This document shows, in pieces, positions 8,230-34,004 of a stretch of 52,221 bases of DNA. Source of the stretch: a virus (taxonomy: Duplodnaviria > Caudoviricetes). The notes below the pieces were generated by a model that worked only from the letters and a program-made list of their open reading frames with translations, did not search any database and was not told the origin of the DNA. The translations under genes were made by a program, and so were the position numbers. Where the stretch lies: positions 1 through 52,221 of the IMG/VR virus record IMGVR_UViG_3300027986_000317. One strand, written 5' to 3'. Every line of letters starts with the position of its first letter. Position 1 is the stretch's first letter.

Positions 8230-10017
8230 CTACACCTTTCCCCGCCGCCGCAGAATGGCTCCCCTTCTCCCCATCACCAGCGGCTTTTCTTTCTCCTCGA
8301 GCTCCGCCATCTTCTCCCCGATCCAAATCATGCGGCTGGTAGCGTCCTCTTTCGGAATGTGCGCCAACATCTCCTGCACCCGCTGTTCTCTCGTCTTCAT
8401 CGTCGGCTCTGGCAATGAAAGCACGATGTATTTCAGCGGGTCGCGCAGGTGATTGTCTTTGTCAACGATCTTTTCTGTTGGATTCTTCGTAAGTAACTGC
8501 TTCTCACTCAATTCCGCGCGCCGGGCCCTGCGCAGCTCCCAGAGAAGATTCGGGCAGCCATTGTTATGCAGCCCATACACCGGCCGCACTATATCTTTGA
8601 GCGCCCGCGGGCAAACGATCCTGATCATCGGCTCGAAGTTATCCAGGTCAAACCAGTGCGCTAGGATGCGCTCCATGCCCGTGATTTCCGTATTGTCAGG
8701 AGCGGACTGCAGGTTCGTAATTCCAGCTTCAGCGTACAACTCTGCCAGCGCCCTAAATGAACCGTCTTCTTGCTGCTGCGTTTTATAGAACATGCTCGGA
8801 TCCGCCATCACATCCGCCTGCTCAAATCCTTCCAACAGCTTCAGGTTCAGAGCATGTTGCCGCGCACTTAAGCCAGGCATGTAATACTCTCCCGTTAACC
8901 ACAACCCTCCTTCATGGTCCACAGCGCCAACCAAGCCTCCTGACGGGTTTGTGCTGCCATGATCGTAACCGCCAACCTTCCGCCATGTCGGAGGAACCTC
9001 GAACCCGCTCTCCGCCTCTACGATGATCTTGTCCCCATACTTGGTGAGAACCTCGGCAAATAGGCGCTCACCGCCGCCAGCTTCGTGAATGATCTCCTGC
9101 TCCCGGTCCCACTCCTGCTGGCTCTTGTATTTCGCCCTCTCGATCACCTTCCACGTCTTGAGCTTCCCGTCCCTTGGATCCACAAACAGCTTGCCAATCG
9201 CCGGATCCCTGTCCGGATCGGCCCAGTAGTAGATCCTCAGCACCAACGTGCCATCAGCCATCCGCCGCGTGTCCACGCCACGGCAGAGCTGCTTATGATC
9301 GTCCTCTGCGGACTGCACCACGTCGGCAAACCACCCAGGACCGGCAGAGCTGAGAACGATGATCTTTTTGCAAGCAGAAATTGCGGCCGCGTAGGACCCA
9401 CCGGCGTCTTCAACAAATGCTGCCTCATCCAGCAGAATCGCCCAGGGGTGATAAGACCGGACCTTGTCTTCACCGTGCGGGATGCCGATGATCCGGCTGC
9501 CATTGGCGAAATTGAGTTCCAGCCATCCCTGCTGCGAACTCGGCTTAACCAGCGGATATGCTGCCTTGATATCCGCGTCCTGCTGGTCATAGAGCGTCTT
9601 GGCGTAGTCAACCAGCTCCGCCGCTTTATCCTCAGTCTGCGATTGAAACAGGACCTCGATACCGGGCGTCGTCATGCACGCGTGCATGAGATAGCCCACG
9701 CACAGCCAGCTCATCATCAGGTCGCGTGACTTCTCAATGAAGATGACCGGCTCTCGCTGGATCTCCTTCAGCGCATAAGGGAAATATGGTTTATCGGGGA
9801 ACGGACGGTGCTCGCTTGTCTCTCCGTCCGCCTTCCAGTGGGGATCCTTGGTCTTGGTGTACTTCTGTAGCCAGATGAGAGGGACCTCAATCCGGCTTTT
9901 CACCTTGGCCCGCTGGAGTTGTACCTTTATCTCGTCTTTAGAGTGCTGGTCACGCAGAACCGCGAGAGCGACTCGCTCGGTACGTGACAAGTTCCTCTTC
10001 AGTCGGAATGTGGCCAT
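8230..10017 (-). CDS. terL: Terminase large subunit
   Basis: Walker A-like EKSRDLMMSW, Walker B ILLDEAAF, coupling motif LSS, nuclease GYDHG and KDNHLRDPLKY. Start uncertain (ATG 10017 or TTG 10029). Confidence 0.9.
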   Translation of the reverse strand: MATFRLKRNLSRTERVALAVLRDQHSKDEIKVQLQRAKVKSRIEVPLIWLQKYTKTKDPHWKADGETSEHRPFPDKPYFPYALKEIQREPVIFIEKSRDLMMSWLCVGYLMHACMTTPGIEVLFQSQTEDKAAELVDYAKTLYDQQDADIKAAYPLVKPSSQQGWLELNFANGSRIIGIPHGEDKVRSYHPWAILLDEAAFVEDAGGSYAAAISACKKIIVLSSAGPGWFADVVQSAEDDHKQLCRGVDTRRMADGTLVLRIYYWADPDRDPAIGKLFVDPRDGKLKTWKVIERAKYKSQQEWDREQEIIHEAGGGERLFAEVLTKYGDKIIVEAESGFEVPPTWRKVGGYDHGSTNPSGGLVGAVDHEGGLWLTGEYYMPGLSARQHALNLKLLEGFEQADVMADPSMFYKTQQQEDGSFRALAELYAEAGITNLQSAPDNTEITGMERILAHWFDLDNFEPMIRIVCPRALKDIVRPVYGLHNNGCPNLLWELRRARRAELSEKQLLTKNPTEKIVDKDNHLRDPLKYIVLSLPEPTMKTREQRVQEMLAHIPKEDATSRMIWIGEKMAELEEKEKPLVMGRRGAILRRRGKV

Positions 10018-10579
10018 AGATAATTGCAAATTCCTGCTGCTCTTTCGTCGTGCCGCGCAGCAGTTCGTTCAGATCTAGCGTCTGGTCCACCAATAATCCC
10101 TTGATTCGTGCGAGAGCTTCCCATGCCTTAACCTGGCCGTTGATGTTGCCTTTCGTCACCATCGCCGGCAGCCGCGCGAGCTGCCGCAGTCCGGAAACAA
10201 TCTCTTCGTCTGGTATGTCCTGGACGGCATCGCCCAGGCGCTCCGCGCTCTGGGCGAGAATGTAGGCTTGTTTTGCCTGGATAGCTTTGGCTACAACTGG
10301 ATTGGCAAGGAGTTTTGAAGCAGCCTGCTCAGGGTGAGCGTAATTGGCGCGCCGGGCGGCGTCCGTGGCGTTCCCACGCCAACACTCAACAAACTTTAAC
10401 TGCATCTCGGTAAGAAGCTCGCTGTCACCCAGATCACTAGGCAGCATGATCTCTGCCTTGGGCGCAGTTGCTGCACCTGCAGCTTCCTGCTTCTTCCTGC
10501 CGGCAGATGGCTGTGGTGTGTCCTTCTTAACCCTCTTCCGTGACGGACCTTTCCCCTTACCATCTTTTCGCTTTGCCAT
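9950..10579 (-). CDS. terS: Terminase small subunit
   Basis: LTEMQLKFVECWRGNATDAARRANY...AASKLLANPVV HTH signature and KAWEALARIKG; directly upstream of terL. Confidence 0.88.
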   Translation of the reverse strand: MAKRKDGKGKGPSRKRVKKDTPQPSAGRKKQEAAGAATAPKAEIMLPSDLGDSELLTEMQLKFVECWRGNATDAARRANYAHPEQAASKLLANPVVAKAIQAKQAYILAQSAERLGDAVQDIPDEEIVSGLRQLARLPAMVTKGNINGQVKAWEALARIKGLLVDQTLDLNELLRGTTKEQQEFAIIYGHIPTEEELVTYRASRSRGSA

Positions 10580-10951: not shown

Positions 10952-11327
10952 GCTCGCGCTCCACGTCATCCACAAACTCCCGTGGTGGTTTCACCTTCCG
11001 CACGTGAGTAGGAAAACGCAGCCCATAATCAATGCTCGGCGGAGGTAGATCGAAATCGTCTCGCCGCCCGCGATAGCCTTTCTTGTAGGGCGCCACCCTT
11101 GCGAAGAACTCAATTTCATCGCCCGGTTCCAGCTTCAGCTCATCCAACCGCTTCCCTACGCGAAACCACAGGTGGTCTGCCACCACAGTCCCAACCTCGT
11201 CGCGTATGTTCTGAAAGAGAGCGGTCCTAATCGGATAGCCCTTAAAGCCCTTCTTCTCGCCAAAGCGCCCAAAGGTTGCGAGAAATCGCCCGCGCCGGCC
11301 GTTGCGCTCCCTAAGAATCTCCCGCAT
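10908..11327 (-). CDS. Phage hypothetical protein, possible OB-fold
   Basis: TGATG coupling to the giant gene; DHLWF...PGDEIEFFARVAPYKKGY beta-rich basic pattern. Confidence 0.7.
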   Translation of the reverse strand: MREILRERNGRRGRFLATFGRFGEKKGFKGYPIRTALFQNIRDEVGTVVADHLWFRVGKRLDELKLEPGDEIEFFARVAPYKKGYRGRRDDFDLPPPSIDYGLRFPTHVRKVKPPREFVDDVEREPIPPMDQAEQMGLF

Positions 11328-14300
11328 CAGTAACTCGTCCTTCGAGATCCAAACTGTTTCTTGAGCAAGATCCTGCTGATCATCATCTGCTCTTCCTCTG
11401 TGTCCGCAGCATCCAGCACTGCCTGGACTTCCTCCAGGCTGAACCGCTCCATGCCGGCTTCAAACTCATCCTTCATTGACTCGCGGATCATCCGGCCCAT
11501 CTCCTGCGGCGAATAATCTCCGGAGGCCTGCCGCGCCTGCCGCTGCTCAATCCTCTCCTGCTCTTCGTCAATCGGCTGGCCATAGTGCGAGCGCTGGATC
11601 TCCAACATCTTTCGCTCTGCTGCCGACATAGCCGCTTGTTTACCCACGCGTGAGAGCCCCAGTTCGCCCAAGGCCGCACGGCCTGCTGGCTCACCTTGTT
11701 TTCGCGCCTCAAGAAATTTACCAACGCCGATTGGCGTACCTACTCCATGCACAGCCTTATCGAACATCTGCTCCCAATACGGGTCACCCGGATGGGATAT
11801 CAAATGCCCCTGAAAGTCCCGGTTATGAATCGTCTCGCCAATCGCCGTCCACGGATCAGCCAACTTGCTGTACGCATAGTTGATCGGGCTCTCGCGCAAC
11901 TGGAATAGATCCTTGAATGGCACCAGCGGCAGCACCCACCGGTTCGAACGGCCGTGCGAGTCGTCGGTCCCATCCCGGGGCGCAATCACATCCTTCCAGT
12001 CCTTCGGAAATTCATGAGTAAAGTAGAGCTGCAGGAGGGTATGCAGAACCGCCCCAATCAACGCCATGCCAAGAATACGCGCCATCATTGGATCCAGCCG
12101 TGGAATTGCCGTCGTACCAGGCTTCGCTGTATCGCTGCCCGTGGCCGCGTCTTTCAGGAATTTGGCGCTCTCCATGAACTCACGCGCCTGTCCCCCAATG
12201 GCCGATCCGGTGAACCGCATGTTGCCCTCAGTCCAGGCCAGGGCACGGAAGATCAGCTGCAGGGACGTTTTGAAAGTCGAATTCCAAAAGCGGTTTGACC
12301 AGTTAATCTCTCCAAAGCGATTGTCTATTTGCGTCCACACCTGCCGTGCCAAGTTCTCTCGCGTGAGCTTGCCGCTGGCCATCTCCTCAAAGCGATCGGC
12401 AAACCTCTCCCCGAGTTCCCGGAAGAACAGGCCAGCCTTAAGCCGTGGAATGTACATCTCGAACAACGGGTATTGCAGAAGCTGGTTTGCCGCGAACGGT
12501 GTCCGCAACAGCGCCCCAATGTAGTTGTGATTCGCCGCCGCCTGCATCAGACTCTCAACCGCGTGCGTGCGGTAGCCCTCGTCCATCGTCAGACGGCCGC
12601 CGCCAGTGAACAGATCGTGAATCATCTCCTGCGCTTCTGGATATTGCTTAATAAAATCCCGTCCGCGGGTGGTACGCAGGAAGCTGATTGGATCATCAAT
12701 GTAGCGAACGATGCTGCCACCTTCGCGTGATAGGGTGAAAGGTGCTGCCCCGCTCTTGCTGGCAGTGATAGCGCCATCAATGATGGCTTTACCAATATCC
12801 GAGGCGCTGGCCGCTTTCCCCTTCGGAGTTATCCAGCGGTCCAGCACATGCCGTACTCCCTGGTTCCAACCGTGTTCAAACCCTCTGCCGGCTTCCGATC
12901 CCGCCGCCAGGATGCTCTCCGTAATCAGGTGGAATGGTGAGAAGCCCAGCCGCCAGGCCGTGTGCTGGTTCTTCACCCACATAATGCCGCGTCCCACCTT
13001 CGACTGCTTGAACCAGTCGTAACTCAGGAAGTTGGTGAGGATGCGATGTGCGTTCTCTTCCACCCAATACTCACCGACTTTGACCAGGCCCTCTCCGGAC
13101 TGGGCCGGGAACAACACGCGAAACATCGGATCGTCCATCTGCTGATAGCCCATGGTCCGCGCCGTCGCCCAATCCCCTTCCTTGAAATACTGCGCGGTGT
13201 GGTAGATCTTCCCCTTAGCGCCAATCGTGTAAGGCTCATTCAGCCATTCATCAAACATCTGCCGCGCTGTCACAAAGCGCAGGCCCTCCACAATGCGCGC
13301 CCTGAAATGATCCACAGGGTTCGTGCTGATGAGCTTTCCGCCCGCCTGCAGACCTTCGCTCACATCTTTAAGCGTCTGCTGTTTCATGAAGGACTTAGGC
13401 CCTTCCAGCGGACGCCCGCGCAGTCCTGATTTTGCTTGCGTCTTTACCTTGCCACTGCCCGGCACTACCTCCCAGCGCGTTGGGAAATAATTCTCCTTGT
13501 CGCTTAGTGTGGGGCGATACTGCCGCTCCAATGTCCGTAGCGGCTCCAAACTCTTGCGCAAGAAGTCCAGGGCGTCATCCAGCTTCACCGTGCGTTGCAG
13601 TTGCCCTGTACGAGCGCGGTCCATGAAATCAATCTTGTCTGCATCCGGCATGCGGTCAAACATCTTCTGCAAGCCACGTACAGCTCGCTCCCAGCGGAAT
13701 GCCTCTTCTTCCCGCTTGCCTTTCATCCGCATGGCCGCGTCCAGGTCCTGCGACCTCACCAAAGTTCTGGGCGCCAGGATGGCCGCACCCTTTAGAGCGA
13801 TCTCGCGCAGGCCTCCAGCAACCTCCTTTGCCACCGGCGCCACGTCCTGCGTGTAGAAGTTCTGGATGCTCTTGATCGGAATCGGCAACGCCATCCGCAA
13901 GGTGCCGGGCTCAAATCCGGTGGTGTCAGGAGGCTCCTTCTTTGTTCCGGTATTTAACTTGTCGTAGTGCTCCTGTAATCGTTGACTGTACGAACCAATG
14001 GTCTCTCCAGGCGTGCGCGATGGCTCTGCTGCCATCCGCGCCTCAATGGTGTCTTCATCCGGTTTGGCCTCAGACGCAGAAAAGCCGCCCGATTCTGGGC
14101 GGCTTGTAGGAGCAAGATTTTGTGGCGGGCTCCCAGGTGGTGACGGACTCGCCGTTGTTGTCCCTTGTTTCAACTGCTGATCTATCTGTCCGATCTTCTC
14201 CTTGATGTCCTGGCGGAAATTGAAACTCTGGTTCAGTTCCCGGAGCTGTGGCGGCGTCGTATGATTCCGTACCCTCTCTCCCGGAATCGGCTTTCCATTC

Positions 14301-17300
14301 TTGTCGACGGCGATCACATCCACACTCCACCGGTTGTTAGGATAGACCGCGCTGGTCGCAGGATGAAACTCTACCACCTGGTCGCGGCCACCACCGTAAC
14401 TCGGCACAAACATGCCGGGCTTGTAGTACTGCGCAATCTCCTTGTCCGTGGGAGGAGCTTTGAGTTTCCGTTGGAGTACCAGCCGTTGCTTCTCCAAACT
14501 CTGCTTGAGCGTGTCGGCAATATCGACGCTGGGCCTGACCGCAGCTCCCATCTTCAGAGCTTCCGTTCCCTCTGGCGTCCTGGCAAACCGTCCACCGTCT
14601 GCCTCTGGATCCTCAATCCGATTCAACCACCCGCGCTTCACTAAACGGGCTATGGTGCTATTGGCCTCGTCCTCATGCAATCCATTCTCGACAAGATGAG
14701 TTAGAAGAGTAATTCCATCCGTCCCTCGGCCTGCAGGCGTTCTCTGCAAAACAGCGCGCTCATGCTCTGTAATTGCGTCTGTGGTCCTACGTGTCTTTTG
14801 TGGCTCAGGTTGTGACGGTTCCCCTGTTTTCTGAGGTTCGGGTGCTTCCACCTTGGCCGGGAACTCCTTCAGCACCCTCCTAATCGCCACATGTCCTTTG
14901 TCACCTTCCGGCAAGTAGTACACCGGCTGCATGCCCCGCTCGTAGATAACGCCCAGGTCCTTCAGGCGCGTGCCAACATTCGCGTTTGGCGGGATAAGCT
15001 GTACCACCTGATTGCGCGACACTCGCCCGCGCCTCACCTGGATTCCACCCTCCAGTTCGTAGCGCGTTCCGTTGTGTAACACGTCCGTCATGAGCTGGCG
15101 AGCATTGACCGTGCTTTGGTTGCCACTGATGCGCGAGAGGAGCTTTTCGATCTCATTGCCCGGAACTTCTACTCCCACCACGCGCCGGCCGCTGTCTGAA
15201 TCCACAGCCGTATAAATGTTCAGGAATTGCCCGGTAGCTTCCCGGATCGGATTCCACCACCGCAGCACCGCACCGCCGATGAGATGATGTTCGACTGTCC
15301 TATGGTCTGGGGCCTGGTCATACTGCTCCTGCCACTGCTGCCGCGCTGCCGCCAGCGGCTCCTTAAGTGCGCTATGTGCATCAGCCAGCGCCTTTTGTTT
15401 CTCGGCCAGTTCCCTCTCTGCGGATCCAACCCGCTCCTGTGCCCATCGGTCGCTGGAATACTTCGCTACCGCCTGCTGTGCATACTTCAAATCGCGCTCT
15501 GCAGCATGGACGGCGATCTCAAGTTCTTCCTTCTGCGCCTTGGCCCATTCGCTGATCTCCTGATACCCGTACAGCTTGGCATTTGGGAATTTCTTCGGCT
15601 TGCCATCAGCGGGAGTCACCACATAAGAAGCCTTCTCGCTCCTGCCATCGGCATGAACGATGTCCTTGGCGTCCATCAAAAGCGCCAGCTTTCCATCCTT
15701 GCCTCGAACAACACGCGCATTTCGTGGAGCGTATTCAATCAGAGATTTTTCCAATTCCTTTGGCGAGACTCGATCCGTCTTTTCGTGCGCCTCGATTGGG
15801 TAGTAAAACGTCTGCGCCTTGGTTTGTGGATCCGTCCCGATCACCCGTTGCTCATTGACCTTGAACCGATCGCCCGGCATCGTCTTCACGCCGGTATCGA
15901 GCTTCCCATCCTCAACGGCCTGCTTAACCGTTGCCTCAAAAATGTCGTAGTAGTAGTCATACACGGCATTCTGAACATCAGGATCCAGCGCGAGGAGTCG
16001 ATTCAGCAGCCGCGTGACGTTGGTACGGTCCTTCGGAGGCACTGTCATGCCGCCCGTATCTGATGGCTTCAACACACCCAGATCCGTGAGCACTTGCATG
16101 CCTTTCAGCTTCGTTCCTGGCACCGGACCATTTTTCAACAGCTGTGTATAGAAAGAGTTGGCCGCTTGCCGTCCCTGGTCCGTCTCGAAGTTGACCTTGT
16201 CCATCATTTCCGTGCCGGCGTTCGTCTTGGTCTGCCCCTTGCCCAGAGCTTCGAGCGATCCCAGCCGCCGCGCGATTGTGGAAACGAAGCGATTTTCTCC
16301 CCCAAGGTTTGATTTCATCAGCGCGTACTCGGGAGGTACTTTTTGGTTAGAGCGGTTCGTTCGGCCCAGCATCTGCATGCTTCGGTCTGCGCTCCATCCC
16401 ACCTGCAGCGTGATATGGAAACGCCGCTGTTGATTGTCCACATCGTGGCCCGCGTGCAGAGAGATACCTGTACCACCAGCCGAGGAGAGGATTGCTACCC
16501 GTTTCTTACCGCCCTGGAAGGCCCGCTCCTCACTCTTGTTAATATCGTCTCGCTTCACTCCCGCGCCGCCGCGTGAAACAAATTTACCGCTGGCCTCGTC
16601 GTAACGCTCTTTGCGGCCGGTGATCTCTGCTACCTTGTTCGGTCCTCCTAACTGCTCAATCAGAATGTCCAGCGGATTCGCTGGCATCTTCAAGTTCTGT
16701 TGCAGCTCCTTCACCAGTGCATCGCGCTCCTTCACCGCAGTCGGATTAATCAGCGGGATCTCTCTTCCCTCTTCGTCCGTTATGAACGCTGGAACCTTAA
16801 TCGAATTGCCGGCGCTGTCTACATCGTCCTTCCACTGTTGCGTCGGATAGTGCTCGCGGACCAGGTCCACCAACATCTCTCCCGGTCCAAAGTCGTAATC
16901 CGGAATTTCGTCGGAGTCATCGGCATCGCGGTACTTGTTCTTTTCCCGGTTCTGCGCGGCCTCGTTCGTATTCACCAGCGAGATAACCACGCTCTTGCCA
17001 TTGGCCAATGCCTGATTGGACTGCTCCACCGCGGTGGGAATCTTGAGTGTGGTGAGAAGCACGTTAAAGAAACGCTGCTGGGAGGCATAGAACAGTGACA
17101 TAAAACGGCTCTTAGCTCTGGCCCCGCCGTTCGTCGTGTTCATGATCGAATCTTCCACGCGCTGAGAGACCAGCCGCCACGCCTTCACCGCCGAGCGATA
17201 AAGTTCCTTCTGCTCCGGAGTGATTTCGTGCTGGATCTCGCTGTACTCGACGCCCTTGTAGCTGAGCGTCCGTGACACATACTTGCCCTGGGCCTTCAAC

Positions 17301-20300
17301 TCTCTCGCCACCATCTCCATGGCGCTCATGCCGCCTGCACCAATTTGCGCGGCAAAGTCATTAAACCCATTCGGGAATGCTGTCCCAGGCCCCCACAGCC
17401 CCAGCCGGTCCAGGTATCCCAGATTAACTACGTCTGTCGCCGCCGTAGCAGACAGCGACACAGACCGCAGCTTTGGTACCTCCTGCATAAACGCCTTCAC
17501 GATCTGCCCGATCTGAGAAGGCTCTCCGCCAGCTCCGGCCACCGCGTTCTTCAACATGTGGGATTCGTCAAAGACAACATATCCCCCCTCACCCTCATCG
17601 TTGCCCACCAGCCAGCGCTTAAGCTGCGCAATGCGCGTGTTGCCTCTTTTGTCTTCTGAGCGCATGAGCGGATAGCTCGTAAACAGCACTCCCTGATGCT
17701 CAATAGGTGCAGTTGCCGCCAACTTGCCTAACGGCTTGATATTGCGCGCCAGCTCCACCGCCCCGATGCCATTCAGGTCGCGCATGGCATCCTGCATCAG
17801 GTCCCAGTTCACGCTTACCCACACCAAGCGCCGGCGCCCTTTGCGCCAGTTGTCCCACAAGATTGCAGCCGCTTCGCGGCCCTTGCCCACTCCCGTTCCA
17901 TCGCCAATTAGCGCGCTCCCGCGAAAGCCACCCGGGAGAATGATTTCATTCTGCTGGCCAGCAATACTCACTGCTTCCAGTTGCACCGCAGAGAGCTTTC
18001 CCTCTTTGATCACTGAATCGGGTAGCGCTGGCCGGTAGCTGATTTCCGGCAGGGGAACTGTCGCCATTGTCTTGGTCTCGACAATAGCTCCAGGATGGTC
18101 AGGCCCCTTTAGCGAGGGTTTGTAAGCTACATAAGCTGAGGTGTCTTCTTCTTCACGGTGGGATTCAGACTCACGCCGTTCGAGAGCTAATTCGCTCTGG
18201 GCCTCTGCCGCAGGTTGGCCGAATTGAATCTGTCGTTCTGTACGTCCATCTTGATTAGGGCCTCCAGTGCCTGGAGTGGCTCCGCCTTCAGGACGTCCTT
18301 CAAATTGAAATCCGGATTGCTGTAGTGGAACTCGTTCACTGCTCGGATTGGACTGATCTCTTCCAAGTTCTCTTCCAGGTCGCTCAGGTCCACCGGCAGG
18401 CTGTACTTCTCCACCAGTTTCTGGCTCTCGTTTGGATAAACCTCGATCGCCTGCTCCACCAACGCCTTGATTTGCTCCCAGGCCAGCTGCGGACTCACTT
18501 TGCCCAAGGCTGATTCCGCCCCGGCGTCCAGCAAGTTGTGGTCTCGTTTCTGCGACATTGCTGAGCGCATTATACGCCTCCTCCAGGGTGTCATACTCAC
18601 CCTGCTTTACTGTCGCCCAGGTCCTCTCCTGCCCCGCCGTCGTCTGTGACGGTGTTGGACCGTCCTTGTCGATTACGATGATTCGCGTCGCAAAGTTGGT
18701 GCCGTACTTCTGGTATTCCTTCCCCGCAATACGCACGTTCGCGCGGATGTTGTATTTCTGGCCCAGCTTCGCAAACCATCTCGCTGCCGCAGGGTTTTGG
18801 AAGGTCGCTCCCTCATTGGGAAAACCGTTGCGGCCACCGCCGAGAATCGTCACCAGCCGCCCACCATCGGCCAAACGTTGGAGAGCAGATTCCACGTGGT
18901 TGAATCCGTAAAGGTTCCGATTCGGCGCGTCGTGAGCTTTCATCGTGCTGGCCGAAAACGGCGGATTCATCACGATCACTGTTGGCTTCACATCTCCGCC
19001 CAGGAGTGCATTGATCAACTCGCCATCGTGCGAGGTCACATGATCAAAGCCGATCATCTTCAACATCGCCTGCCGGCGCGGAGAGATTTCATTCACGTAT
19101 GTCTCAGCGCCAATCGCTTTGGCCCATATCGCCAGGCCCCCGTTGCCTGCCGATGGCTCAAGTACCAGATCTTGCGGCGTCAACCCGGCCACTCTCGCTA
19201 CCACATACGCCTCAGTCGGAGGAGTAGAAAACTGTTGGTTCTTAACCTGCTCATCCGTGCGGACGCTCTGCGATGGCAACCGCTCCATGATGTTGCGGAG
19301 AGTCGCCAGGGCGCCGGGTACGTCCATCTCCATCAGCTCCTTGCCGCGCTCCAACAAGAACTTGTTAACACCGCCCTCCATAGCGTCAAATGCGTCCTTG
19401 GGTGTCCACTCTCCGGAGACACGCGAGGATCCAAAAGCCTCCTCTGCCATCCGATTTAGATCGGTTACATTCCCGATAGGCCGATGCTGTTTCAGAGCTT
19501 CATAAACAGAATTGGCTAGTCTCTCTGCACCTGTTCTGGAAGAAGTGAGATCATCGGCGCTTTCCTTCTCTGCCGCAAAAAGATGCTCGTCTTGTGCTTC
19601 CTGCATCCGCTTGGCTTTTTCTAAAGCCTCTCCCGCACTCTTATGCCCCATGCTCAACATGCGGCCGGTGGCTTTCTCTTGCACTCCAAAGCTGCTCTTG
19701 TTGGCACCTTGCGGAATGATCCTAAAAAGTTTCGTTTCCACTAATCCCTGTTCTGGTCCCGAAACGGGTCTTTGTTCTTGTACACGTGCCGCCCCGGCAG
19801 GCTCAGGCTCAGGAGCGTGCTTCCCTGCGGTATCGAGTCCAGCATCTCCGGTTTTGTCCCGCTCTCCGGTCCGGAGTCCGGCTTCTTTTCTCGACTGCTT
19901 GTCTCGGTCGGCAGCGCTCTCTGCGCTGGCTTCGTCTTTTCCAACTCCATAAGAGAGTCCTGTACCTTTCTTCTCCCCGGTCTTTCCATTGGGGAGCTTT
20001 ATCGTAAAAACTGCTTCGGCCAAACGGTCATTGATGCGCTTGGCCACACGCCCTACCCGCTCAGGTTCGGTCGAAAGAAACAGAAATTCATCGCCGCTTC
20101 TATGGTACGGACGGATGCTGCCGCCTGGCTCACGCGCAATCGCATCGCGAATTAAATCACCCACTGCCGGCAGCACTACTGTGTCAACTCCATAGTGGCC
20201 CAAGGCAGTGTTGAACTGTTTGAAATCGTCCAGATCGGCGTAGCCCACATGCTGGTGAGTCTGCGCCAACTCTTCCCGATCCTCCTGAAACGCCCGATAA

Positions 20301-23300
20301 TTCGGGAGTCCAGTTTTTTCGTTTGTGAGGAGCGCCCGCGTCTTCTCCTCTGGAGTCATTTGGTCGACGCGCTTGCGCAAGTCGGAATTCTGCCGCCGCT
20401 CCGCTGGTTCCTTTTCCAGTTCATCCACATGAACAACCTCTGTGGGCTGTTCTTTGGGCTTGGCGGCCTCTTTTGGAGCTCTACCTTTCAGTTCCTTGGG
20501 ATCCACATGGAATGCCGCGCCAAAAGAATCAAGTGGGCTCGGCTCCGGTCCCAGGGCGAGAGTCGCCTGTCCCGGCTTGTCCGCTTTCGCGTCCTGGGTG
20601 AACTGGTGGATGGCCTTGCGTACCACCTGCGCCGGCTCACCAAGCGTCTTGATGAGCGCGTCCACGTCCGGCGTCCGACCGCCGCCAAAGAGTGCTCCTT
20701 GCCTGAGAAAATCGCTCACGCTCAGGTGCTTCTCCGCCATGTCCGCGTGTGCCGCCAGCGCCTCCTCCAGCATTGGAAGAATGTTGTAACCATCATCACG
20801 CGTAGCCAGATAAGCAATGTCCATCAGACTGGAATCCAGCTTCGCAAGCGTGCCGGCAGGAATGCGATCCAGAAGATCTGGATCCGTGATGTACGTCCCG
20901 CGCAGTATCTTGACAACCAGATTCTTTCCGTCGTCTGTGATAGCGCCGTGGGCATCCAAGTACTGCGGCCGCTCTCGTTCACTTATGGCCCCGTCTTCCA
21001 CCAGCCGCTGAATCACCTCGTTGCCGCGATCCCGCAATACTTCCCTCAACGTTGCATCTGGGCCAATCTTTTCCGCCATGTCCTGAATTGCCTTAAGCGT
21101 GGACTCGCTAACTTTTTTGGCCGCGCTCACGGCCTTCTGACTGGCAGTCAGCGCGCCAGTTTTGCTGCGGTTTAACTCGGAAGCAATGCGGTTGGCTTCC
21201 TCGATCGTTGCGGGTGGCTTGTCCAACACTCGCACCAGAGCAGGCTTCTTAAAGCCGTCAACATCTTCAGGTTCGTAACCAAATTGATGCGCGTGTTCCT
21301 TCAGCGCCTGCTGGTAAGGTGTCTGCCTCTCGCCTTTGTGCTGGGCATACATCCGCTGAATTGTCATCATCCGCGAGTTGCCACCGAGAACAACGGCCCC
21401 TGGTTCCAAAACGGGAGGCCCGTTCACAGCATCCGGATTGGTGTTTACCAGATAGTCGAACTGGAAATCATTGGTCTGATTTTCAACCCGCGCTTGAGCT
21501 TCCTTGTCACTGTGGTATGCGCGCTCCTGTACCCCAGACGGATAATCCATGTTTTTGGCGAACGTCAGAGCGTGGTGAGAGGTAATAGGCTTGTCGGCTT
21601 CGACCAACTGATAAGTAGCGGGCAGGGAGCCGTTATCCAACTTCACATTGGTCTTTGCGCCGGATATACCCGGCAATTGTTTGCCGCGAGGAAATGCCCC
21701 TTCCTCTTCTTTTGCTGCTTTAGTCCCTATGCCATTGCGCTCTTTGAACCTGTCCAGCGCCTCTGTGTTGATCTTCTTCGCTTCGGCATGGGCCTTGTCT
21801 CTGGCCGCCAGGTCTCCCGCCAGCTCCGCCTTCCGTCCATCCGTATAGTGCCGATGGCTCTCGTCTGTGACTTCCTGAACCTCACGTGGAACAATCTGAA
21901 CCTCTGCGGTTGAACCATTCGGCATCTTCACTTGCACATTCGCGGACGGATACCCGGCTAAGTCCGGCCTGCCCTCCAAAAACTTGTCTTCCACCGACAC
22001 CACGTCCATGTGCTTCTTCATCTCCGCAATCAACTGGTCTTTCGCCTGCGGTGAGTCGGCAGCGATCTGCGCGGCAAGATAGTCAGCGATGGTTTTTGGT
22101 GGCTTATCGTCTTGTTCCACCTTCTCGTCCACGCGCTTCATATTCTTCTGTGGACGCATCCGGTCGAAGGTGATTCCCGGAACTGAGGCGCTCAATTGCG
22201 AAAGCTGCGTTGCCAAAACGGGAGCGGCTTCCCCGGCAAGACGCTCGTTTTGCATCTCGTCGTTACTTGGCTGAACTATAGTCCGGCCAGATTCCTTGTC
22301 TTCATCCCCGATCCTTTGCACCGCCGCGTCACTGACCGGCTTCGGCGGCTGAGCTAAGGCCGCTTCGTTTTCCGGTGTCTCTTTCTTCACCATCACCAGA
22401 GGCTCTTGCCCTGGCACGAGCTGCGCTTCCTGCGCAACCTTCTCCACTGCGGGAGAGTCCTGGGTCATCTCCCGGCCCATAGGCTGCTTGTCGCCCTCTG
22501 TGCCGGAAACCGGAGCAGTAGTTGGCAAAACTCTTTCGCCCGGAGCGTCTTCCCGTAACCATTCAGGCCTGGCCAGGACTTCACGCGGTTTACTTTGCTC
22601 TGCCTTGGAAACAATTCCCTCGGCGGCCATTCGATCAATCAAATTCGCGGCGACTCCATAACCAATTCTCAGTCGTCGCTGAAGTAAGGAAGTAGAAGCT
22701 TTGCCGAAATCTACAACCAGTTTGACGGCCTGCTTATACGTGTCATCAGCGCCCGCTGCTGGCTGCTGCTGAGGCGTTTGCGCTACGGATGGGGTTTGAG
22801 TACCTTCCGGCCCAGCAGCCCCCGTCTGTGGGCCATTTTTACCGTCAACTACCCCCTCAACTGGAATTGTTCCACGTGGAACAATTGGTGTAGTTTCAGT
22901 AGTTTGAACCGGAGTAGTTACTTGCGCCGTCTTGTCCTGCGTGCTAGTCGCTCCCAGTTGATCCACATCTACAACCTGCGGCCCACCGGAGGAGCGCTGA
23001 GCACGCGCCAAGGCTGGCTGCTGCTTTTGCCTTTCCTTTGTCTCCTTTTCCGCCGCCTTCTGGGAGTCTTCTCGCGCCCGGTCCTCAGCTTCGACCTGAT
23101 CGTTGATGAACTTAGAAGCAAGGTTCTTGGCCTGGCCTGGGTTGGCAACCGTGTGGACCTTCCCATCTGGTCCGACGAACGTTCCCCGGGTCATGATCCA
23201 CTTGGTCAGATTGGCGTGCGCTTCCAGCATTGCCTTTGTGCGTGCCTCTGGCGGAAGCTGCAACACAGTCGTGGTAATGCCCTGGACCACTTCCGGTGAA

Positions 23301-24673
23301 AGATGATTCTCCGGCCCCTGCGATCCCGGTACAGGAGGCGGAGGCTGGTACTGCTTGTTTCCCGCCGCTTGCTCTAACTCAATCAGAGCTTGCGCGCCTT
23401 CCTGTGGGGCCGGGGCAGCTTCAGGCGGAATCAATTCAGGCGGCTTTTTGCCGGCAGCAGCCCCACCGCCGCGGGGAATATTTACCTCGAACTGTGTGCC
23501 GCCTACGCGTACTCGCCCGGTGTAGACGTCAGGCGTTTCTGCCACGCCAGCCCGCACCCGGCCACCAAACATACTGGCAACACCGAACCTCCCTTGCGGC
23601 GTCTCAAGCGTTGATGTTCGCAATCCAGAGAGCACTCCAAATGCTGAAGGGACGAAAAAGAAGAGCTGCCTTCCAAGTTCTTCCGCTTCCGGCGACACAT
23701 GCCCATGCAAAGCGTCGCCACCGCCTTCGCTCAGCGCCATGCCAAACGCGATCGCGCCTGCCGTGGCGATCGGCTTGCCGATGAGGGACGCTGGCAAGGC
23801 TACCGTTCCCAGGCGTCCTGTACCCTCCAGCACTTCTGCCGCACCCAGCATCTTTTGGCGTGATTGCTTCTTCTCATCCTCCTCAGACATCATGCGGACA
23901 GGTGGCCCAAACGGATCCTTGGGATTAACTCCGTACACAGGCTGGTCGTTATCGTGGATGCGCGAAAGTCCAGTAGCCACAGGCTCTGCGCCACTGGCGA
24001 TCCACATCAGCGGGTCTTCCAAAAACGAGGATGCCTCGGGAACGGCTTTGTCCCGATATACCTGTCCTGTCTTGGCGTTGATACGTTCCTCCTGGAACGC
24101 ATAAGGATCAAGCTCTGTGCTGGCGCTGCCTGGAGGCGCAAGTGTGTGGCCGGCAGCTTCTTCCGCCGTGGCGGTAGCTTCCGGTTTCATCGGCGGCTCA
24201 AGTCCGGCACGTACATTCTGTTCGTAACGCCGCTGCAAGACAGCACGATTGCGCGGAGTGAGCGAGGCTGTAAACTGCTCGCGCCCCGCTGCCGTGGTTT
24301 GATCTGCCGTGGGCTGCGGTGAAGATGCCGGAAGGCCGGTAGGCTCAGGTTCACGCTCGCGGTCCAGAATGGTCTTAACAGCCTGATCACTGGGCCAAAT
24401 TCCGGGAGTTTTCTCAACCGGAACTCCATGCCGAAATGTGCGCGTGTCTCCCGTGGTCTGGTTTTCTGGATAGGCCGCGATGTTCTTCAAGGCAACGGCT
24501 TGCTTGCGGTGAATGTCCTCCTGCTGCTCCGGTGTGAGCTGTGCAGGAGGGTTTGCAGCCGCTTTAGATTGCCCTCCAAGATCATCCGCAGACACCACTT
24601 GCGTGTCCTGCAAATCATCCACTGAAACAACACTCGCGCCTTGCTGGTCGTCGTTTACACCAGTCTCTGCCAT
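11327..24673 (-). CDS. Giant polyvalent (DarB-like) putative ejection protein, ~4450 aa
   Basis: FtsK-gamma wHTH (~22565-22750); RelA/SpoT-like (~21730-22250); DdrB-like ParB (~21150-21640); GGDEF (~19885-20340); N6-adenine MTase (LEPSAGNG, NPPF, ~18650-19500); Strawberry-notch SF2 helicase (GDGTGVGKG, DESH, SAT, ~15900-18135); wHTH (~14560-14780); helical C-terminal region. Follows the two smaller ejection genes. Confidence 0.92.
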   Translation of the reverse strand: MAETGVNDDQQGASVVSVDDLQDTQVVSADDLGGQSKAAANPPAQLTPEQQEDIHRKQAVALKNIAAYPENQTTGDTRTFRHGVPVEKTPGIWPSDQAVKTILDREREPEPTGLPASSPQPTADQTTAAGREQFTASLTPRNRAVLQRRYEQNVRAGLEPPMKPEATATAEEAAGHTLAPPGSASTELDPYAFQEERINAKTGQVYRDKAVPEASSFLEDPLMWIASGAEPVATGLSRIHDNDQPVYGVNPKDPFGPPVRMMSEEDEKKQSRQKMLGAAEVLEGTGRLGTVALPASLIGKPIATAGAIAFGMALSEGGGDALHGHVSPEAEELGRQLFFFVPSAFGVLSGLRTSTLETPQGRFGVASMFGGRVRAGVAETPDVYTGRVRVGGTQFEVNIPRGGGAAAGKKPPELIPPEAAPAPQEGAQALIELEQAAGNKQYQPPPPVPGSQGPENHLSPEVVQGITTTVLQLPPEARTKAMLEAHANLTKWIMTRGTFVGPDGKVHTVANPGQAKNLASKFINDQVEAEDRAREDSQKAAEKETKERQKQQPALARAQRSSGGPQVVDVDQLGATSTQDKTAQVTTPVQTTETTPIVPRGTIPVEGVVDGKNGPQTGAAGPEGTQTPSVAQTPQQQPAAGADDTYKQAVKLVVDFGKASTSLLQRRLRIGYGVAANLIDRMAAEGIVSKAEQSKPREVLARPEWLREDAPGERVLPTTAPVSGTEGDKQPMGREMTQDSPAVEKVAQEAQLVPGQEPLVMVKKETPENEAALAQPPKPVSDAAVQRIGDEDKESGRTIVQPSNDEMQNERLAGEAAPVLATQLSQLSASVPGITFDRMRPQKNMKRVDEKVEQDDKPPKTIADYLAAQIAADSPQAKDQLIAEMKKHMDVVSVEDKFLEGRPDLAGYPSANVQVKMPNGSTAEVQIVPREVQEVTDESHRHYTDGRKAELAGDLAARDKAHAEAKKINTEALDRFKERNGIGTKAAKEEEGAFPRGKQLPGISGAKTNVKLDNGSLPATYQLVEADKPITSHHALTFAKNMDYPSGVQERAYHSDKEAQARVENQTNDFQFDYLVNTNPDAVNGPPVLEPGAVVLGGNSRMMTIQRMYAQHKGERQTPYQQALKEHAHQFGYEPEDVDGFKKPALVRVLDKPPATIEEANRIASELNRSKTGALTASQKAVSAAKKVSESTLKAIQDMAEKIGPDATLREVLRDRGNEVIQRLVEDGAISERERPQYLDAHGAITDDGKNLVVKILRGTYITDPDLLDRIPAGTLAKLDSSLMDIAYLATRDDGYNILPMLEEALAAHADMAEKHLSVSDFLRQGALFGGGRTPDVDALIKTLGEPAQVVRKAIHQFTQDAKADKPGQATLALGPEPSPLDSFGAAFHVDPKELKGRAPKEAAKPKEQPTEVVHVDELEKEPAERRQNSDLRKRVDQMTPEEKTRALLTNEKTGLPNYRAFQEDREELAQTHQHVGYADLDDFKQFNTALGHYGVDTVVLPAVGDLIRDAIAREPGGSIRPYHRSGDEFLFLSTEPERVGRVAKRINDRLAEAVFTIKLPNGKTGEKKGTGLSYGVGKDEASAESAADRDKQSRKEAGLRTGERDKTGDAGLDTAGKHAPEPEPAGAARVQEQRPVSGPEQGLVETKLFRIIPQGANKSSFGVQEKATGRMLSMGHKSAGEALEKAKRMQEAQDEHLFAAEKESADDLTSSRTGAERLANSVYEALKQHRPIGNVTDLNRMAEEAFGSSRVSGEWTPKDAFDAMEGGVNKFLLERGKELMEMDVPGALATLRNIMERLPSQSVRTDEQVKNQQFSTPPTEAYVVARVAGLTPQDLVLEPSAGNGGLAIWAKAIGAETYVNEISPRRQAMLKMIGFDHVTSHDGELINALLGGDVKPTVIVMNPPFSASTMKAHDAPNRNLYGFNHVESALQRLADGGRLVTILGGGRNGFPNEGATFQNPAAARWFAKLGQKYNIRANVRIAGKEYQKYGTNFATRIIVIDKDGPTPSQTTAGQERTWATVKQGEYDTLEEAYNALSNVAETRPQLAGRRGGISLGQSESAAGLGANQGVGGAGDRGLSKREPETGGEVQPAGGPERPGRELGRDQSNPSSERVPLQQSGFQFEGRPEGGATPGTGGPNQDGRTERQIQFGQPAAEAQSELALERRESESHREEEDTSAYVAYKPSLKGPDHPGAIVETKTMATVPLPEISYRPALPDSVIKEGKLSAVQLEAVSIAGQQNEIILPGGFRGSALIGDGTGVGKGREAAAILWDNWRKGRRRLVWVSVNWDLMQDAMRDLNGIGAVELARNIKPLGKLAATAPIEHQGVLFTSYPLMRSEDKRGNTRIAQLKRWLVGNDEGEGGYVVFDESHMLKNAVAGAGGEPSQIGQIVKAFMQEVPKLRSVSLSATAATDVVNLGYLDRLGLWGPGTAFPNGFNDFAAQIGAGGMSAMEMVARELKAQGKYVSRTLSYKGVEYSEIQHEITPEQKELYRSAVKAWRLVSQRVEDSIMNTTNGGARAKSRFMSLFYASQQRFFNVLLTTLKIPTAVEQSNQALANGKSVVISLVNTNEAAQNREKNKYRDADDSDEIPDYDFGPGEMLVDLVREHYPTQQWKDDVDSAGNSIKVPAFITDEEGREIPLINPTAVKERDALVKELQQNLKMPANPLDILIEQLGGPNKVAEITGRKERYDEASGKFVSRGGAGVKRDDINKSEERAFQGGKKRVAILSSAGGTGISLHAGHDVDNQQRRFHITLQVGWSADRSMQMLGRTNRSNQKVPPEYALMKSNLGGENRFVSTIARRLGSLEALGKGQTKTNAGTEMMDKVNFETDQGRQAANSFYTQLLKNGPVPGTKLKGMQVLTDLGVLKPSDTGGMTVPPKDRTNVTRLLNRLLALDPDVQNAVYDYYYDIFEATVKQAVEDGKLDTGVKTMPGDRFKVNEQRVIGTDPQTKAQTFYYPIEAHEKTDRVSPKELEKSLIEYAPRNARVVRGKDGKLALLMDAKDIVHADGRSEKASYVVTPADGKPKKFPNAKLYGYQEISEWAKAQKEELEIAVHAAERDLKYAQQAVAKYSSDRWAQERVGSAERELAEKQKALADAHSALKEPLAAARQQWQEQYDQAPDHRTVEHHLIGGAVLRWWNPIREATGQFLNIYTAVDSDSGRRVVGVEVPGNEIEKLLSRISGNQSTVNARQLMTDVLHNGTRYELEGGIQVRRGRVSRNQVVQLIPPNANVGTRLKDLGVIYERGMQPVYYLPEGDKGHVAIRRVLKEFPAKVEAPEPQKTGEPSQPEPQKTRRTTDAITEHERAVLQRTPAGRGTDGITLLTHLVENGLHEDEANSTIARLVKRGWLNRIEDPEADGGRFARTPEGTEALKMGAAVRPSVDIADTLKQSLEKQRLVLQRKLKAPPTDKEIAQYYKPGMFVPSYGGGRDQVVEFHPATSAVYPNNRWSVDVIAVDKNGKPIPGERVRNHTTPPQLRELNQSFNFRQDIKEKIGQIDQQLKQGTTTASPSPPGSPPQNLAPTSRPESGGFSASEAKPDEDTIEARMAAEPSRTPGETIGSYSQRLQEHYDKLNTGTKKEPPDTTGFEPGTLRMALPIPIKSIQNFYTQDVAPVAKEVAGGLREIALKGAAILAPRTLVRSQDLDAAMRMKGKREEEAFRWERAVRGLQKMFDRMPDADKIDFMDRARTGQLQRTVKLDDALDFLRKSLEPLRTLERQYRPTLSDKENYFPTRWEVVPGSGKVKTQAKSGLRGRPLEGPKSFMKQQTLKDVSEGLQAGGKLISTNPVDHFRARIVEGLRFVTARQMFDEWLNEPYTIGAKGKIYHTAQYFKEGDWATARTMGYQQMDDPMFRVLFPAQSGEGLVKVGEYWVEENAHRILTNFLSYDWFKQSKVGRGIMWVKNQHTAWRLGFSPFHLITESILAAGSEAGRGFEHGWNQGVRHVLDRWITPKGKAASASDIGKAIIDGAITASKSGAAPFTLSREGGSIVRYIDDPISFLRTTRGRDFIKQYPEAQEMIHDLFTGGGRLTMDEGYRTHAVESLMQAAANHNYIGALLRTPFAANQLLQYPLFEMYIPRLKAGLFFRELGERFADRFEEMASGKLTRENLARQVWTQIDNRFGEINWSNRFWNSTFKTSLQLIFRALAWTEGNMRFTGSAIGGQAREFMESAKFLKDAATGSDTAKPGTTAIPRLDPMMARILGMALIGAVLHTLLQLYFTHEFPKDWKDVIAPRDGTDDSHGRSNRWVLPLVPFKDLFQLRESPINYAYSKLADPWTAIGETIHNRDFQGHLISHPGDPYWEQMFDKAVHGVGTPIGVGKFLEARKQGEPAGRAALGELGLSRVGKQAAMSAAERKMLEIQRSHYGQPIDEEQERIEQRQARQASGDYSPQEMGRMIRESMKDEFEAGMERFSLEEVQAVLDAADTEEEQMMISRILLKKQFGSRRTSY
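18187..18570 (-). CDS. Probable overprinted gene (127 aa) nested out of frame in the giant ORF
   Basis: GGAGGAGG-6 nt-ATG; globular acidic helical sequence; spans the Gly/Arg/Pro-rich MTase-helicase linker of the giant ORF. Confidence 0.6.
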   Translation of the reverse strand: MRSAMSQKRDHNLLDAGAESALGKVSPQLAWEQIKALVEQAIEVYPNESQKLVEKYSLPVDLSDLEENLEEISPIRAVNEFHYSNPDFNLKDVLKAEPLQALEALIKMDVQNDRFNSANLRQRPRAN

Positions 24674-24777
24674 AGTCAACTATATTGTCGTCTGGATAGT
24701 TATGGTAAGATGCTGCCAGAATAAACCGCAGATGCAACAAACGGCGGCGGAGCGGGCAACTCTGTCGCCGTACTTAT

Positions 24778-32615: not shown

Positions 32616-34004
32616 CTAAACGTCCAGGGTGGCTCCCGCTTCGTTCAGGAGGTTCATCACGCGCTCCGCGTCCTTCTCATCACGAGTCACGTGGATTACC
32701 TGCGGCAACCGCTCCATCAGGTCCTTGGCGGCGTTCACACTGATGCCTTGTAGTTCAGAGATAGCCTTAGCTACCTTGCCCCTCTGCTGCCCTGTGGCCT
32801 TCAGTGTGATCTTGAACTCGGTTGTGGCATCAGTCGCGGGAGGCTGAGGGTCGCTTTTCACGACGAGCGCAGTTGCAGTACCACCGCCATCGGCGGTAGC
32901 TGCCGGCGTTGGTACCGGTGCGTTGCTTTGTGGCGCCAACGGTTCAGTTCCTTCGTTCAGCATCCGCTCGAAGTCCGCTTTGATCTGCCGAGCCTTTTGC
33001 CATTGCTCCGGGGTCATTTTCTTGAACGAAGGATGTCCCCACTCGATCATCGACTCCTCGTATGCTTTGAGGGGATCAAACACGTAGGGACACTTGCCGC
33101 ACATCGGGCCTATCCGTGTCGCAGTGCACACGGGGCAACTCTCCGCAGAAATCATGGAGGACGGCCTGGCCGCGGTGAGCCATACCGGCTTATCCTCCAG
33201 CTTCACACCACCTTCTTCCAGCAGAATTCTCCACGCATCGCGGTGAATGTTATCCACCTGCATGCGTGTCTTTTCGCTGGACCAAAGCATGTCGGCTTCC
33301 TGTGCACGGGCCTGGCACCACATGAAACGTCGCTGCCGTTCCTCTTCGAGCAGATGCCGGATCGGTGGCCCCATCGCTTCTGGAACCCGCGTGCCCGCGT
33401 ACATGAAAACACCGCCAATGCCCTGGATCTCGCAAAACTCCGTCACAAAGCCTCTGGCCATGGTCTTCGGCAGGTACGGAATGGCCTTGTAGTTGTCCAC
33501 GCCCGTCATGTCTGTGCCGTTGTCTTCGTGATCCCAGCACAGATGCTCAATGCAGAGATAGCCATAGGAAACAATATTCTTGTTCTTTCGCTGTACTGGC
33601 GCAGGAGGAACTACCAGGTTGTAGCGAGAGTGGATCACGCTATTCAGCTTCAGAGGAAACGGAAGCAGATTGATAACCATGTACGGCTCCCAGCCTGCAT
33701 CATTGACCTCGCGCAGCCGGTCGTTCTGGCTGGCAAGCAGCCGCCGCGTACTTGCCGCGACGTTCTTGGATGTAAGGATTTGATCAACCGGCCGTCCCGG
33801 TATCACCACGTCACCGCGTTCATCGCGAACCGTAGTGGCTTCAATCTGCCTCTGGGCCTCGCGCTCCAAATCGTCGCCTGTGGGATTAAGAACACGCCGT
33901 AAAGCAGCCTCACTGATCCCGCGTTTGTTAAATGCGGCATCGACAGCCACTTGAGGAACCGTCCTGTGCGTTGACTCCTGAAGATACTTCTGCTCATCTG
34001 CCAT
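32616..34004 (-). CDS. Hypothetical protein with Zn ribbon and C-terminal ribosomal bL12 (L7/L12) domain
   Basis: CPVC..CGKC; last 67 aa EFKITLKATGQQRGKVAKAISELQGISVNAAKDLMERLP...LNEAGATLDV follow the bL12 CTD pattern. Confidence 0.8.
   Translation of the reverse strand: MADEQKYLQESTHRTVPQVAVDAAFNKRGISEAALRRVLNPTGDDLEREAQRQIEATTVRDERGDVVIPGRPVDQILTSKNVAASTRRLLASQNDRLREVNDAGWEPYMVINLLPFPLKLNSVIHSRYNLVVPPAPVQRKNKNIVSYGYLCIEHLCWDHEDNGTDMTGVDNYKAIPYLPKTMARGFVTEFCEIQGIGGVFMYAGTRVPEAMGPPIRHLLEEERQRRFMWCQARAQEADMLWSSEKTRMQVDNIHRDAWRILLEEGGVKLEDKPVWLTAARPSSMISAESCPVCTATRIGPMCGKCPYVFDPLKAYEESMIEWGHPSFKKMTPEQWQKARQIKADFERMLNEGTEPLAPQSNAPVPTPAATADGGGTATALVVKSDPQPPATDATTEFKITLKATGQQRGKVAKAISELQGISVNAAKDLMERLPQVIHVTRDEKDAERVMNLLNEAGATLDV

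Follow-up and report, generated by a model that had tools for sequence, protein, structure and literature searches.

The DNA analysed here is a stretch of 52,221 nucleotides (nt; the window), positions 1 to 52,221 of the IMG/VR virus record IMGVR_UViG_3300027986_000317 (Duplodnaviria; Caudoviricetes). Its minus strand carries a giant open reading frame (ORF) for a polyvalent protein in which a methylase is followed by a Strawberry-notch helicase. A second ORF (18187-18570) lies fully embedded in the +1 frame of the methylase-helicase linker, and it is very probably (roughly 0.85) a genuine protein-coding gene. The small gene sets the constraints under which this segment evolves, and the linker of approximately 138 residues is an out-of-frame, stop-free and otherwise unconstrained reading of the same bases. 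Methylase/Strawberry-notch fusions of viruses and mobile elements have this arrangement throughout a large clade, and annotation pipelines take such a locus for one protein. The features at the junction are as follows.

18187-18570, minus strand: nested gene, 127 codons plus TAG, in the +1 frame of the giant ORF.
18577-18584, minus strand: Shine-Dalgarno (SD)-like sequence GGAGGAGG, 6 nt 5′ of the nested ATG.
18217-18534, minus strand: family-homologous core of the nested protein, residues 13-118, with eight predicted helices.
11327-24679, minus strand: giant polyvalent ORF, 4,450 codons from a TTG; the form on record has 4,448 amino acids from the ATG at 24673.
18554-19237, minus strand: methylase catalytic region, residues ~1815-2042 with approximate boundaries, showing the conserved columns QQFSTPP...NPPF...KEYQKYG...TLEEAYNALSNV.
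18140-18553, minus strand: giant-frame linker, residues 2043-2180, G/R/P/E/Q-rich, with no stops and a sequence that appears unconstrained.

A previous reading made from the sequence only had reported GGAGGAGG-CGTATA-ATG, containing TATAAT, ahead of 127 codons, and all of this was recovered when the minus strand was read again. The order is GGAGGAGG at 18584-18577, CGTATA at 18576-18571 and ATG at 18570-18568, with TATAAT at 18574-18569; the frame closes with TAG at 18189-18187, 127 codons being counted from the ATG at 18570, and the translation runs LAWEQIKALVEQAIEVY ... LQALEALIKMD as quoted. A simple promoter scan found no -35 partner or sigma-70-type site around TATAAT. The nested frame is also open from a GTG at 18600 (137 codons), and a second in-frame ATG (18558), formed from conserved N/D-V codons of the giant frame, is an alternative start corresponding to the MSQ/MSP N-termini common in the family. 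In the window, the SD and ATG are built of the L-E-E-A-Y-N-A codons of the last conserved methylase helix, the SD itself being the L-E-E codons. That the nested ORF spans the linker also holds, as it covers giant residues ~2037-2165, between the end of the conserved methylase (TLEEAYNALSNV, residue 2042) and the start of the conserved helicase module (YVAYKP, residues 2183-2188).

Composition and codon usage in the overlap follow the nested frame. Its G+C fractions at codon positions 1/2/3 are.594/.315/.764, with.758/.598/.315 for the giant frame; the references are.641/.444/.625 (whole giant ORF) and.611/.446/.663 (long ORFs of the genome). By codon-usage log-likelihood in 90-nt windows, the +1 frame is preferred from ~18559 to 18260 and frame 0 on either side, and along the giant ORF an alternative sense frame is ahead in 18 of 880 windows, 16 of which are the nested region. 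Genome-wide scoring gives the nested run +31.6 bits in its own frame vs +2.4 in the giant frame. There are no giant-frame stops across the nested gene, where synonymous resampling with genome usage yields a mean of 8.0 (P(0)=0.0002); openness is thus maintained in both frames, with a base composition that belongs to the nested gene. Shuffling the codon order of the nested gene gives P(0)=0.013 for a stop-free giant frame, and 2.2% of 128-codon windows in the genes of the genome are open in the corresponding frame. The sole other place where an alternative frame is favoured (2 of 880 windows, 7-9 bits) is a second +1 ORF on the minus strand (19741-19989), 82 codons from an ATG in a low-complexity stretch past GGDEF. 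It was rejected as a second embedded gene, its K/P/E/S-rich translation looking like low-complexity chance.

An exhaustive phmmer search of 1.84 billion representative proteins identified 93 homologues of the nested product at E<=1e-3, 35 of them at E<=1e-10, the best with 56% identity (E=3e-25). These are mostly 105-130 amino acids in length with a Met at the equivalent position; among 95 proteins (the 93 matches plus P0097 and P0101), 70 have at most 150 amino acids, 18 have 151-250 and 7 exceed 250. The motifs ALGKvSPeLAW, PvxGvNxfHYxNP and PLxvLEAvlkM..DR lie along the full alignment, and the family profile (A1) matches the window with E=1.7e-46 over positions 1-117 of its 119. AlphaFold2 with the family alignment confidently predicts an eight-helix domain (predicted local distance difference test, pLDDT, 88.8; predicted template modelling score 0.79). 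Neither the nested protein nor its longer relatives belong to a family in Pfam, PHROGs or NCBIfam, the exceptions in this search being phrog_2910 on P0004 (E=0.0047, unknown function) and a sub-threshold HEAT_2 match on P0080. Foldseek comparison of the window model with the PDB and BFVD, and of a model from the larger of the two nested clusters described below with the PDB, gave nothing better than E=0.9, and the ESM Atlas returned unnamed clusters only, with low recognition.

The family was not found in any of the 78 other genomes of the same genus and was identified convincingly in one of 400 others of the phylum (G420, E=4.5e-9). Against phages and plasmids, tblastn with the nested protein or with the 231-amino-acid junction gave no match, and blastn of 2.2 kb gave only 9 short helicase matches, in plasmids. 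In searches for related loci, the nested protein alone returned nothing useful and alignment A3 nothing in metagenomes; no longer fused forms were found by A1 among 8,000 scored candidates, which is weak evidence.

Relatives of the host gene show the same arrangement. With the junction region as query, a word-indexed search retrieved 51 giant proteins including that of the query (2,838-5,948 amino acids, with varied accessory domains), and at least 33 of the 50 others align over the whole 231-residue junction at 38-51% identity, with the same long G/R/P-rich linker. At the DNA level, IMG/VR and JGI metagenomes were searched with the junction alignment A4 as query, which gave 99 sequences (the window and 98 loci): 12 duplicates, 23 without anchors and 64 unique with both, inclusion requiring methylase and helicase anchors in one open giant frame. 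The anchors are widely spaced (175-445 residues) in 60 of the 64, and the linker of every one of these is open in +1 for 97-168 codons; no such +1 ORF is present in any of the four loci with short spacing (88-93 residues). The loci range from 36 to 70% G+C, and in 60/60 the +1 frame exceeds the giant frame in third-position G+C, for example with 0.59 vs 0.15 at 36% G+C; the +2 frame over the linker is mostly short. The sequence-only reading had named interruption of the nested frame by stops in homologues as the finding that would count against it, and this was not the case, the frame being open in relatives.

Start signals recur as well. An ATG lies within the first 50 codons of the run in 58/60 loci, with a median length of 120 codons from that ATG, and in 16/60 it is the first or second codon past the upstream +1 stop. 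An ATG preceded by an SD-like word at -16 to -4 is present in 52/60 loci, vs 0.15 predicted from the +1-frame density in the flanks. For loci below 58% G+C, the chance of a +1 run this long at that fixed place in the linker is 2e-4 to 5.5e-2 per locus. Among the anchor-less loci with enough sequence, 8/9 have the same architecture with a divergent helicase anchor. The ninth, L097 (a metagenome contig of 1,596 bases), has one indel in the dual-coding stretch, past which both readings shift one frame together, and is either an assembly error or a decaying copy.

Some loci have further peculiarities. In L026, L027, L031, L038, L049, L063 and L089 the spacing is 334-445 residues, with extra sequence past the nested gene: the giant frame of L089 carries what looks like an ordinary inserted domain, the +2 frame of L049 is open for 233 codons, and L063 is the sole long-spacing locus whose run, far downstream, has no ATG. 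Four others (L093, L102, L080 and L065; 45-54% G+C) contain additional open +1 stretches, 145-150 codons long, in other parts of the methylase or helicase coding sequence, which might be more embedded ORFs or chance.

Substitutions show which of the two readings is constrained. Over 102 codons of the window and three viral loci, identity is 31-54% in the nested frame and 18-32% in the giant frame. Summed over 20 independent pairs, nested codon positions 1/2/3 differ 850/618/922 times, which makes third positions of the giant frame the least variable; in the helicase flank of the same pairs the giant-frame differences show the normal pattern (691/470/1532). The sequence-only reading had proposed frame-specific ratios of nonsynonymous to synonymous change (dN/dS) across homologues, and these came out at ~0.45 (nested) and ~1.2 (giant). 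Counts in the style of OLGenie (PMC7531306) gave 0.44 (dNN/dSN) and 1.16 (dNN/dNS), respectively, in the six closest independent pairs, and 0.49 and 1.22 in ten pairs; single differences were counted, uncorrected for multiple hits, with stop-creating changes excluded from the sites. Nested-synonymous changes are approximately three times as frequent per site as nested-nonsynonymous ones (p=2.5e-14), and giant-frame synonymy gives no excess (p=0.30). The nested protein is thus under purifying selection and the linker peptide is not, apart from staying open. Global comparison of nested and giant identity over distant pairs was set aside as uninformative, low-complexity composition inflating the giant-frame identity. 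Codon usage, homologues, fold, conservation and dN/dS agree with the previous suggestion that the G/R/P/Q-rich giant frame is a shifted reading of a real gene.

The 60 nested ORFs fall into a cluster of 36, a cluster of 15 (with the window) and 9 singletons, and for a representative of the large cluster a helical fold is likewise predicted with confidence (pLDDT 82.3). Not all family members could be embedded in a linker: 5/95 proteins have a conserved N-terminal extension of 45-100 amino acids and 7/95 exceed 250 amino acids, and some of these forms are up to 62% identical to nested copies. Among the relatives, P0019, P0020 and P0027 are fused to a second conserved unnamed domain (..ALMAHYGG.SGLFVALW..DDEILN..), and another five have an N-terminal RxYNxxTGxCDLSEEE motif, neither with a Pfam match. 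A free-standing distant copy lies in locus L015 (4842-5381, plus strand; the G420 match above), beside Sel1-repeat and DUF3987 genes. Its -1 frame is open as a G/R/P-rich run of ~85 codons into a downstream membrane-protein ORF, and it does not belong to a methylase-helicase gene; this frame of the family genes would therefore be naturally stop-poor.

As to function, one tentative view, at odds put below even, is that this small helical protein of a mostly acidic family is translated from the giant mRNA and serves the DarB-like methylase-helicase module as an accessory factor. A role tied to the module is argued from the fixed position at the methylase-helicase junction, whatever other domains the giant protein carries. 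The sequence-only reading had envisaged an independently translated partner, such as a chaperone or antidote acting on a toxic domain of the giant protein. The separate gene in the nested frame stands (60/60 relatives, SD and ATG, dN/dS ~0.45), but the antidote or chaperone role is not supported, and no antitoxin family was matched in Pfam, PHROGs or NCBIfam (PADLOC was not searched). A predicted complex of the nested protein with giant residues 1701-2501 scored 0.00, which is neither support nor counter-evidence and was not used. Three points weigh against a dedicated partner: short-linker methylase-helicase relatives exist and the family is present in 0/4 of their genomes, non-embeddable forms are as close to nested ones as the 62% given above, and no family or fold match in Pfam, PHROGs, NCBIfam or Foldseek gives a functional handle.

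Alternatively, the product could be an autonomous anti-defence or regulatory protein, such as an acidic inhibitor of a host system, for which the linker is a protected parking place and which does not act on the giant protein. Its close non-embeddable relatives, some with other domains, would suit this, as would the mostly acidic character of the 60 nested proteins (median isoelectric point, pI, 4.89; 46/60 below 5.5), the functioning of short-linker modules without it, and its fast evolution (dN/dS ~0.45); conflict proteins evolve fast. However, it occupies one fixed junction position in 60/60 long-linker loci regardless of other domains, the protein of the window is only mildly acidic (pI 5.45), and Foldseek gave no fold similarity to known DNA mimics or inhibitors. 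An autonomous role is considered about as probable as the accessory one. DNA mimics of the Ocr/ArdA type have a very acidic surface and a DNA-like fold. The nested protein does not show these features, given the pI values and the lack of any Foldseek match better than E=0.9 in the PDB or BFVD.

It could also be asked whether a selfish mobile cassette of the homing type was inserted here, one that tolerates being read through and spreads horizontally among methylase-helicase genes. The linker is ~105-110 residues longer than in short-linker relatives of the same genus, four of which (~50% identical) have ~30 residues at the linker vs ~138 in the window; this, the failure to find the family in the other 78 genomes of the genus and the closeness in sequence of non-embeddable forms to nested ones would fit such a cassette. 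No nuclease or recombinase domain was detected with Pfam, PHROGs or NCBIfam, however, and the start signals are made from conserved codons of the host gene itself. Nested and flank identity moreover climb together (nested 0.54 at flank 0.75-0.9 and 0.85 at >=0.9; Spearman 0.36 overall), and since they do so in close pairs, the data are consistent with vertical co-inheritance of the nested gene and its flanks. A mobile cassette is accordingly very improbable.

The small protein would be made by internal initiation at the SD and ATG contained in the codons L-E-E-A-Y-N-A of the last methylase helix. An SD-like element within a coding region can stimulate frameshifting, as in prfB and dnaX, and here too it could promote slippage. 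A programmed +1 frameshift from the giant frame would then give a truncated isoform (the N-terminal domains, the methylase and the nested domain) and no free 127-amino-acid protein; the position of the nested stop, well ahead of the helicase, suits such a two-isoform scheme. In every locus, however, a stop a short way upstream of the family core shuts the +1 frame, and in the 16 loci noted above an ATG is the first or second codon after this stop. The SD stands at start-codon spacing in 52/60, most family members are proteins of 105-130 amino acids with a Met start at the equivalent position, and no slippery motif was noticed, though no systematic search for one was made. Frameshifting is thus given a very slight probability, and internal initiation appears favoured over it by the conserved signals.

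A chance open frame, or an assembly or frameshift artefact, would leave no separate gene, and although the genome is a metagenome-assembled genome from soil and ORFs of >=100 codons in alternative frames are nothing unusual at this G+C, this can practically be dismissed in view of the 93 homologues, the codon usage that follows the nested frame, its purifying selection and its recurrence in 60/60 independently assembled long-linker loci of 36-70% G+C, which are not copies of one sequence (flank identity ~30% to 97%).

Several points weigh against the reading of ORF 18187-18570 as an embedded gene of a widespread kind. Openness alone is weak, as the flanks of 26/48 loci, which are GC-rich, contain +1 runs of >=97 codons too; ORF length was consequently dropped as sole evidence. 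Composition, homology and conservation, in contrast, go far past what chance would give. The requirement for an open giant frame could hide split arrangements, of which there were none among the 9 failed loci inspected. A nested dN/dS of ~0.45 indicates relaxed constraint. The homology of the two nested clusters is only suggestive, two profile comparisons being collinear but giving probabilities of 80% (E=1.4e-5) and 12% (E=0.0025); a single origin of the two families is possible. Finally, the evidence for translation is indirect: no RNA run is listed with the stretch, and the only run containing it is the probable source, a soil metagenome.

The sequence-only reading had called the gene overprinted, a polarity that has to be reversed: constraint lies on the small gene, and it is the giant linker that looks derived. 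The usual marks of the older frame in an overlap are a codon usage closer to that of the genome, relatives outside the overlap and selective constraint. The nested frame shows all three, and by these criteria it is judged the older, with the linker reading derived. An existing small gene would have been engulfed, or read through, when methylase and helicase were joined. Such engulfment appears the likeliest course because the small gene has relatives that cannot be embedded in a linker; the rise of a new gene in an old linker seems less likely.

The host is a methylase/Strawberry-notch polyvalent protein of the kind for which a DNA methylase-helicase dyad is described by Iyer et al. (2017; PMC5512222). 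In Pfam, its ORF matches FtsK_gamma, ddrB-ParB, GGDEF, AAA_34 and Helicase_C_4, with a RelA_SpoT-like match below cut-off; the two helicase domains are placed as follows.

17195-18100, minus strand: AAA_34 (Strawberry-notch P-loop NTPase), residues 2194-2495, E=2.6e-94.
15884-16678, minus strand: Helicase_C_4 (Strawberry-notch C-terminal), residues 2668-2932, E=2.6e-77.

No Pfam methylase match was obtained in the giant ORF. The methylase region is presumed to be an N6-methylase from its NPPF and S-adenosylmethionine (SAM)-binding motif, and relatives of the giant gene are annotated as class I SAM-dependent methyltransferase/helicase. In the protein collection, for the genome of the window itself, the nested product is listed by one source and the 4,448-amino-acid host protein by six.

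The surrounding region (8230-50442, minus strand) is a long run of minus-strand ORFs, with a small-terminase match at 9950-10579 (Terminase_2, E=1.2e-6). It looks like a prophage in a soil-metagenome genome because of this small-terminase ORF near the giant gene. Eight of the ten large neighbouring ORFs tested have no Pfam family. A 462-amino-acid prophage ORF (32616-34004, minus strand) has a C-terminal match to ribosomal L7/L12 (PF00542, E=1.2e-9, residues 397-461), which is unusual for a phage protein.

Embedded genes as such are known, for example in phiX174. In Rz/Rz1 of phage lambda, a small gene is wholly embedded in the +1 frame of another on the same strand, has its own start and is read from one mRNA; both frames are constrained and the products interact. 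The present gene resembles it in being a small gene wholly embedded in +1 on the same strand with its own start, one mRNA serving both products. It differs in that the host overlap is an unconstrained linker (dN/dS ~1.2), the embedded gene being constrained, and in that the host is a multidomain gene of 4,450 codons. The comS gene of Bacillus subtilis (46 codons) lies out of frame in the srfA synthetase gene, inside a catalytic domain, and is lineage-restricted. It too is a short gene with its own translation, concealed in a different frame of a very large multidomain ORF. The present gene, with ~125 codons, falls exactly on an inter-domain linker and shows conservation across dozens of divergent viral lineages.

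In classical viral overprinting, the new and disordered product is the small embedded one. Viral overprinted genes have been reviewed (PMC8227390, PMC3494269). The likeness here is that two sense frames are coding, that one of them is biased and disorder-prone, and that frame-specific selection is measurable. The difference is that the disordered, unconstrained reading is that of the large host, and that the embedded gene has non-embeddable homologues. The present host, like P1 DarB, combines an N6-methylase with a Strawberry-notch SWI2/SNF2 ATPase in a multidomain phage protein. The same holds for the polyvalent dyad (PMC5512222), in which, however, an embedded linker gene is not part of the description: a term search of the paper gave no occurrence of 'overlapping', 'frameshift', 'linker' or 'low-complexity', and its single 'reading frame' passage concerns neighbouring small ORFs. 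No prior description of an embedded gene in this linker was found in the literature searched, subscription journals being mostly outside its scope. The novelty lies in the family, its place in the linker of polyvalent methylase-helicases, its breadth and the reversal of which frame is constrained.

Double-stranded DNA phages and bacteria offer few examples of long same-strand genes that are fully embedded and have solid evolutionary support, and annotation pipelines discard them. The strength of the present case lies in at least 60 independently assembled lineages spanning 36-70% G+C, in frame-specific selection and in confident predicted folds in both nested families. The usual picture is inverted, in that the embedded gene is constrained and the host linker drifts while remaining open, which suggests a route to linkers and fusions. 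A broader proposal, put forward with some reserve and at less than even odds, is that this clade joins methylase and helicase by wrong-frame translation through an older gene and so hides a fast-evolving accessory or anti-defence protein of new fold, its dose set by internal initiation, as an instance of a general, unrecognised 'reverse overprinting'. If true, the mechanism would serve quite generally to generate disordered linkers and to conceal genes. The finding adds an uncharacterised family to the DarB-like methylase-helicase modules that phages and plasmids deploy against restriction, and provides a target for work on phage-host conflict.

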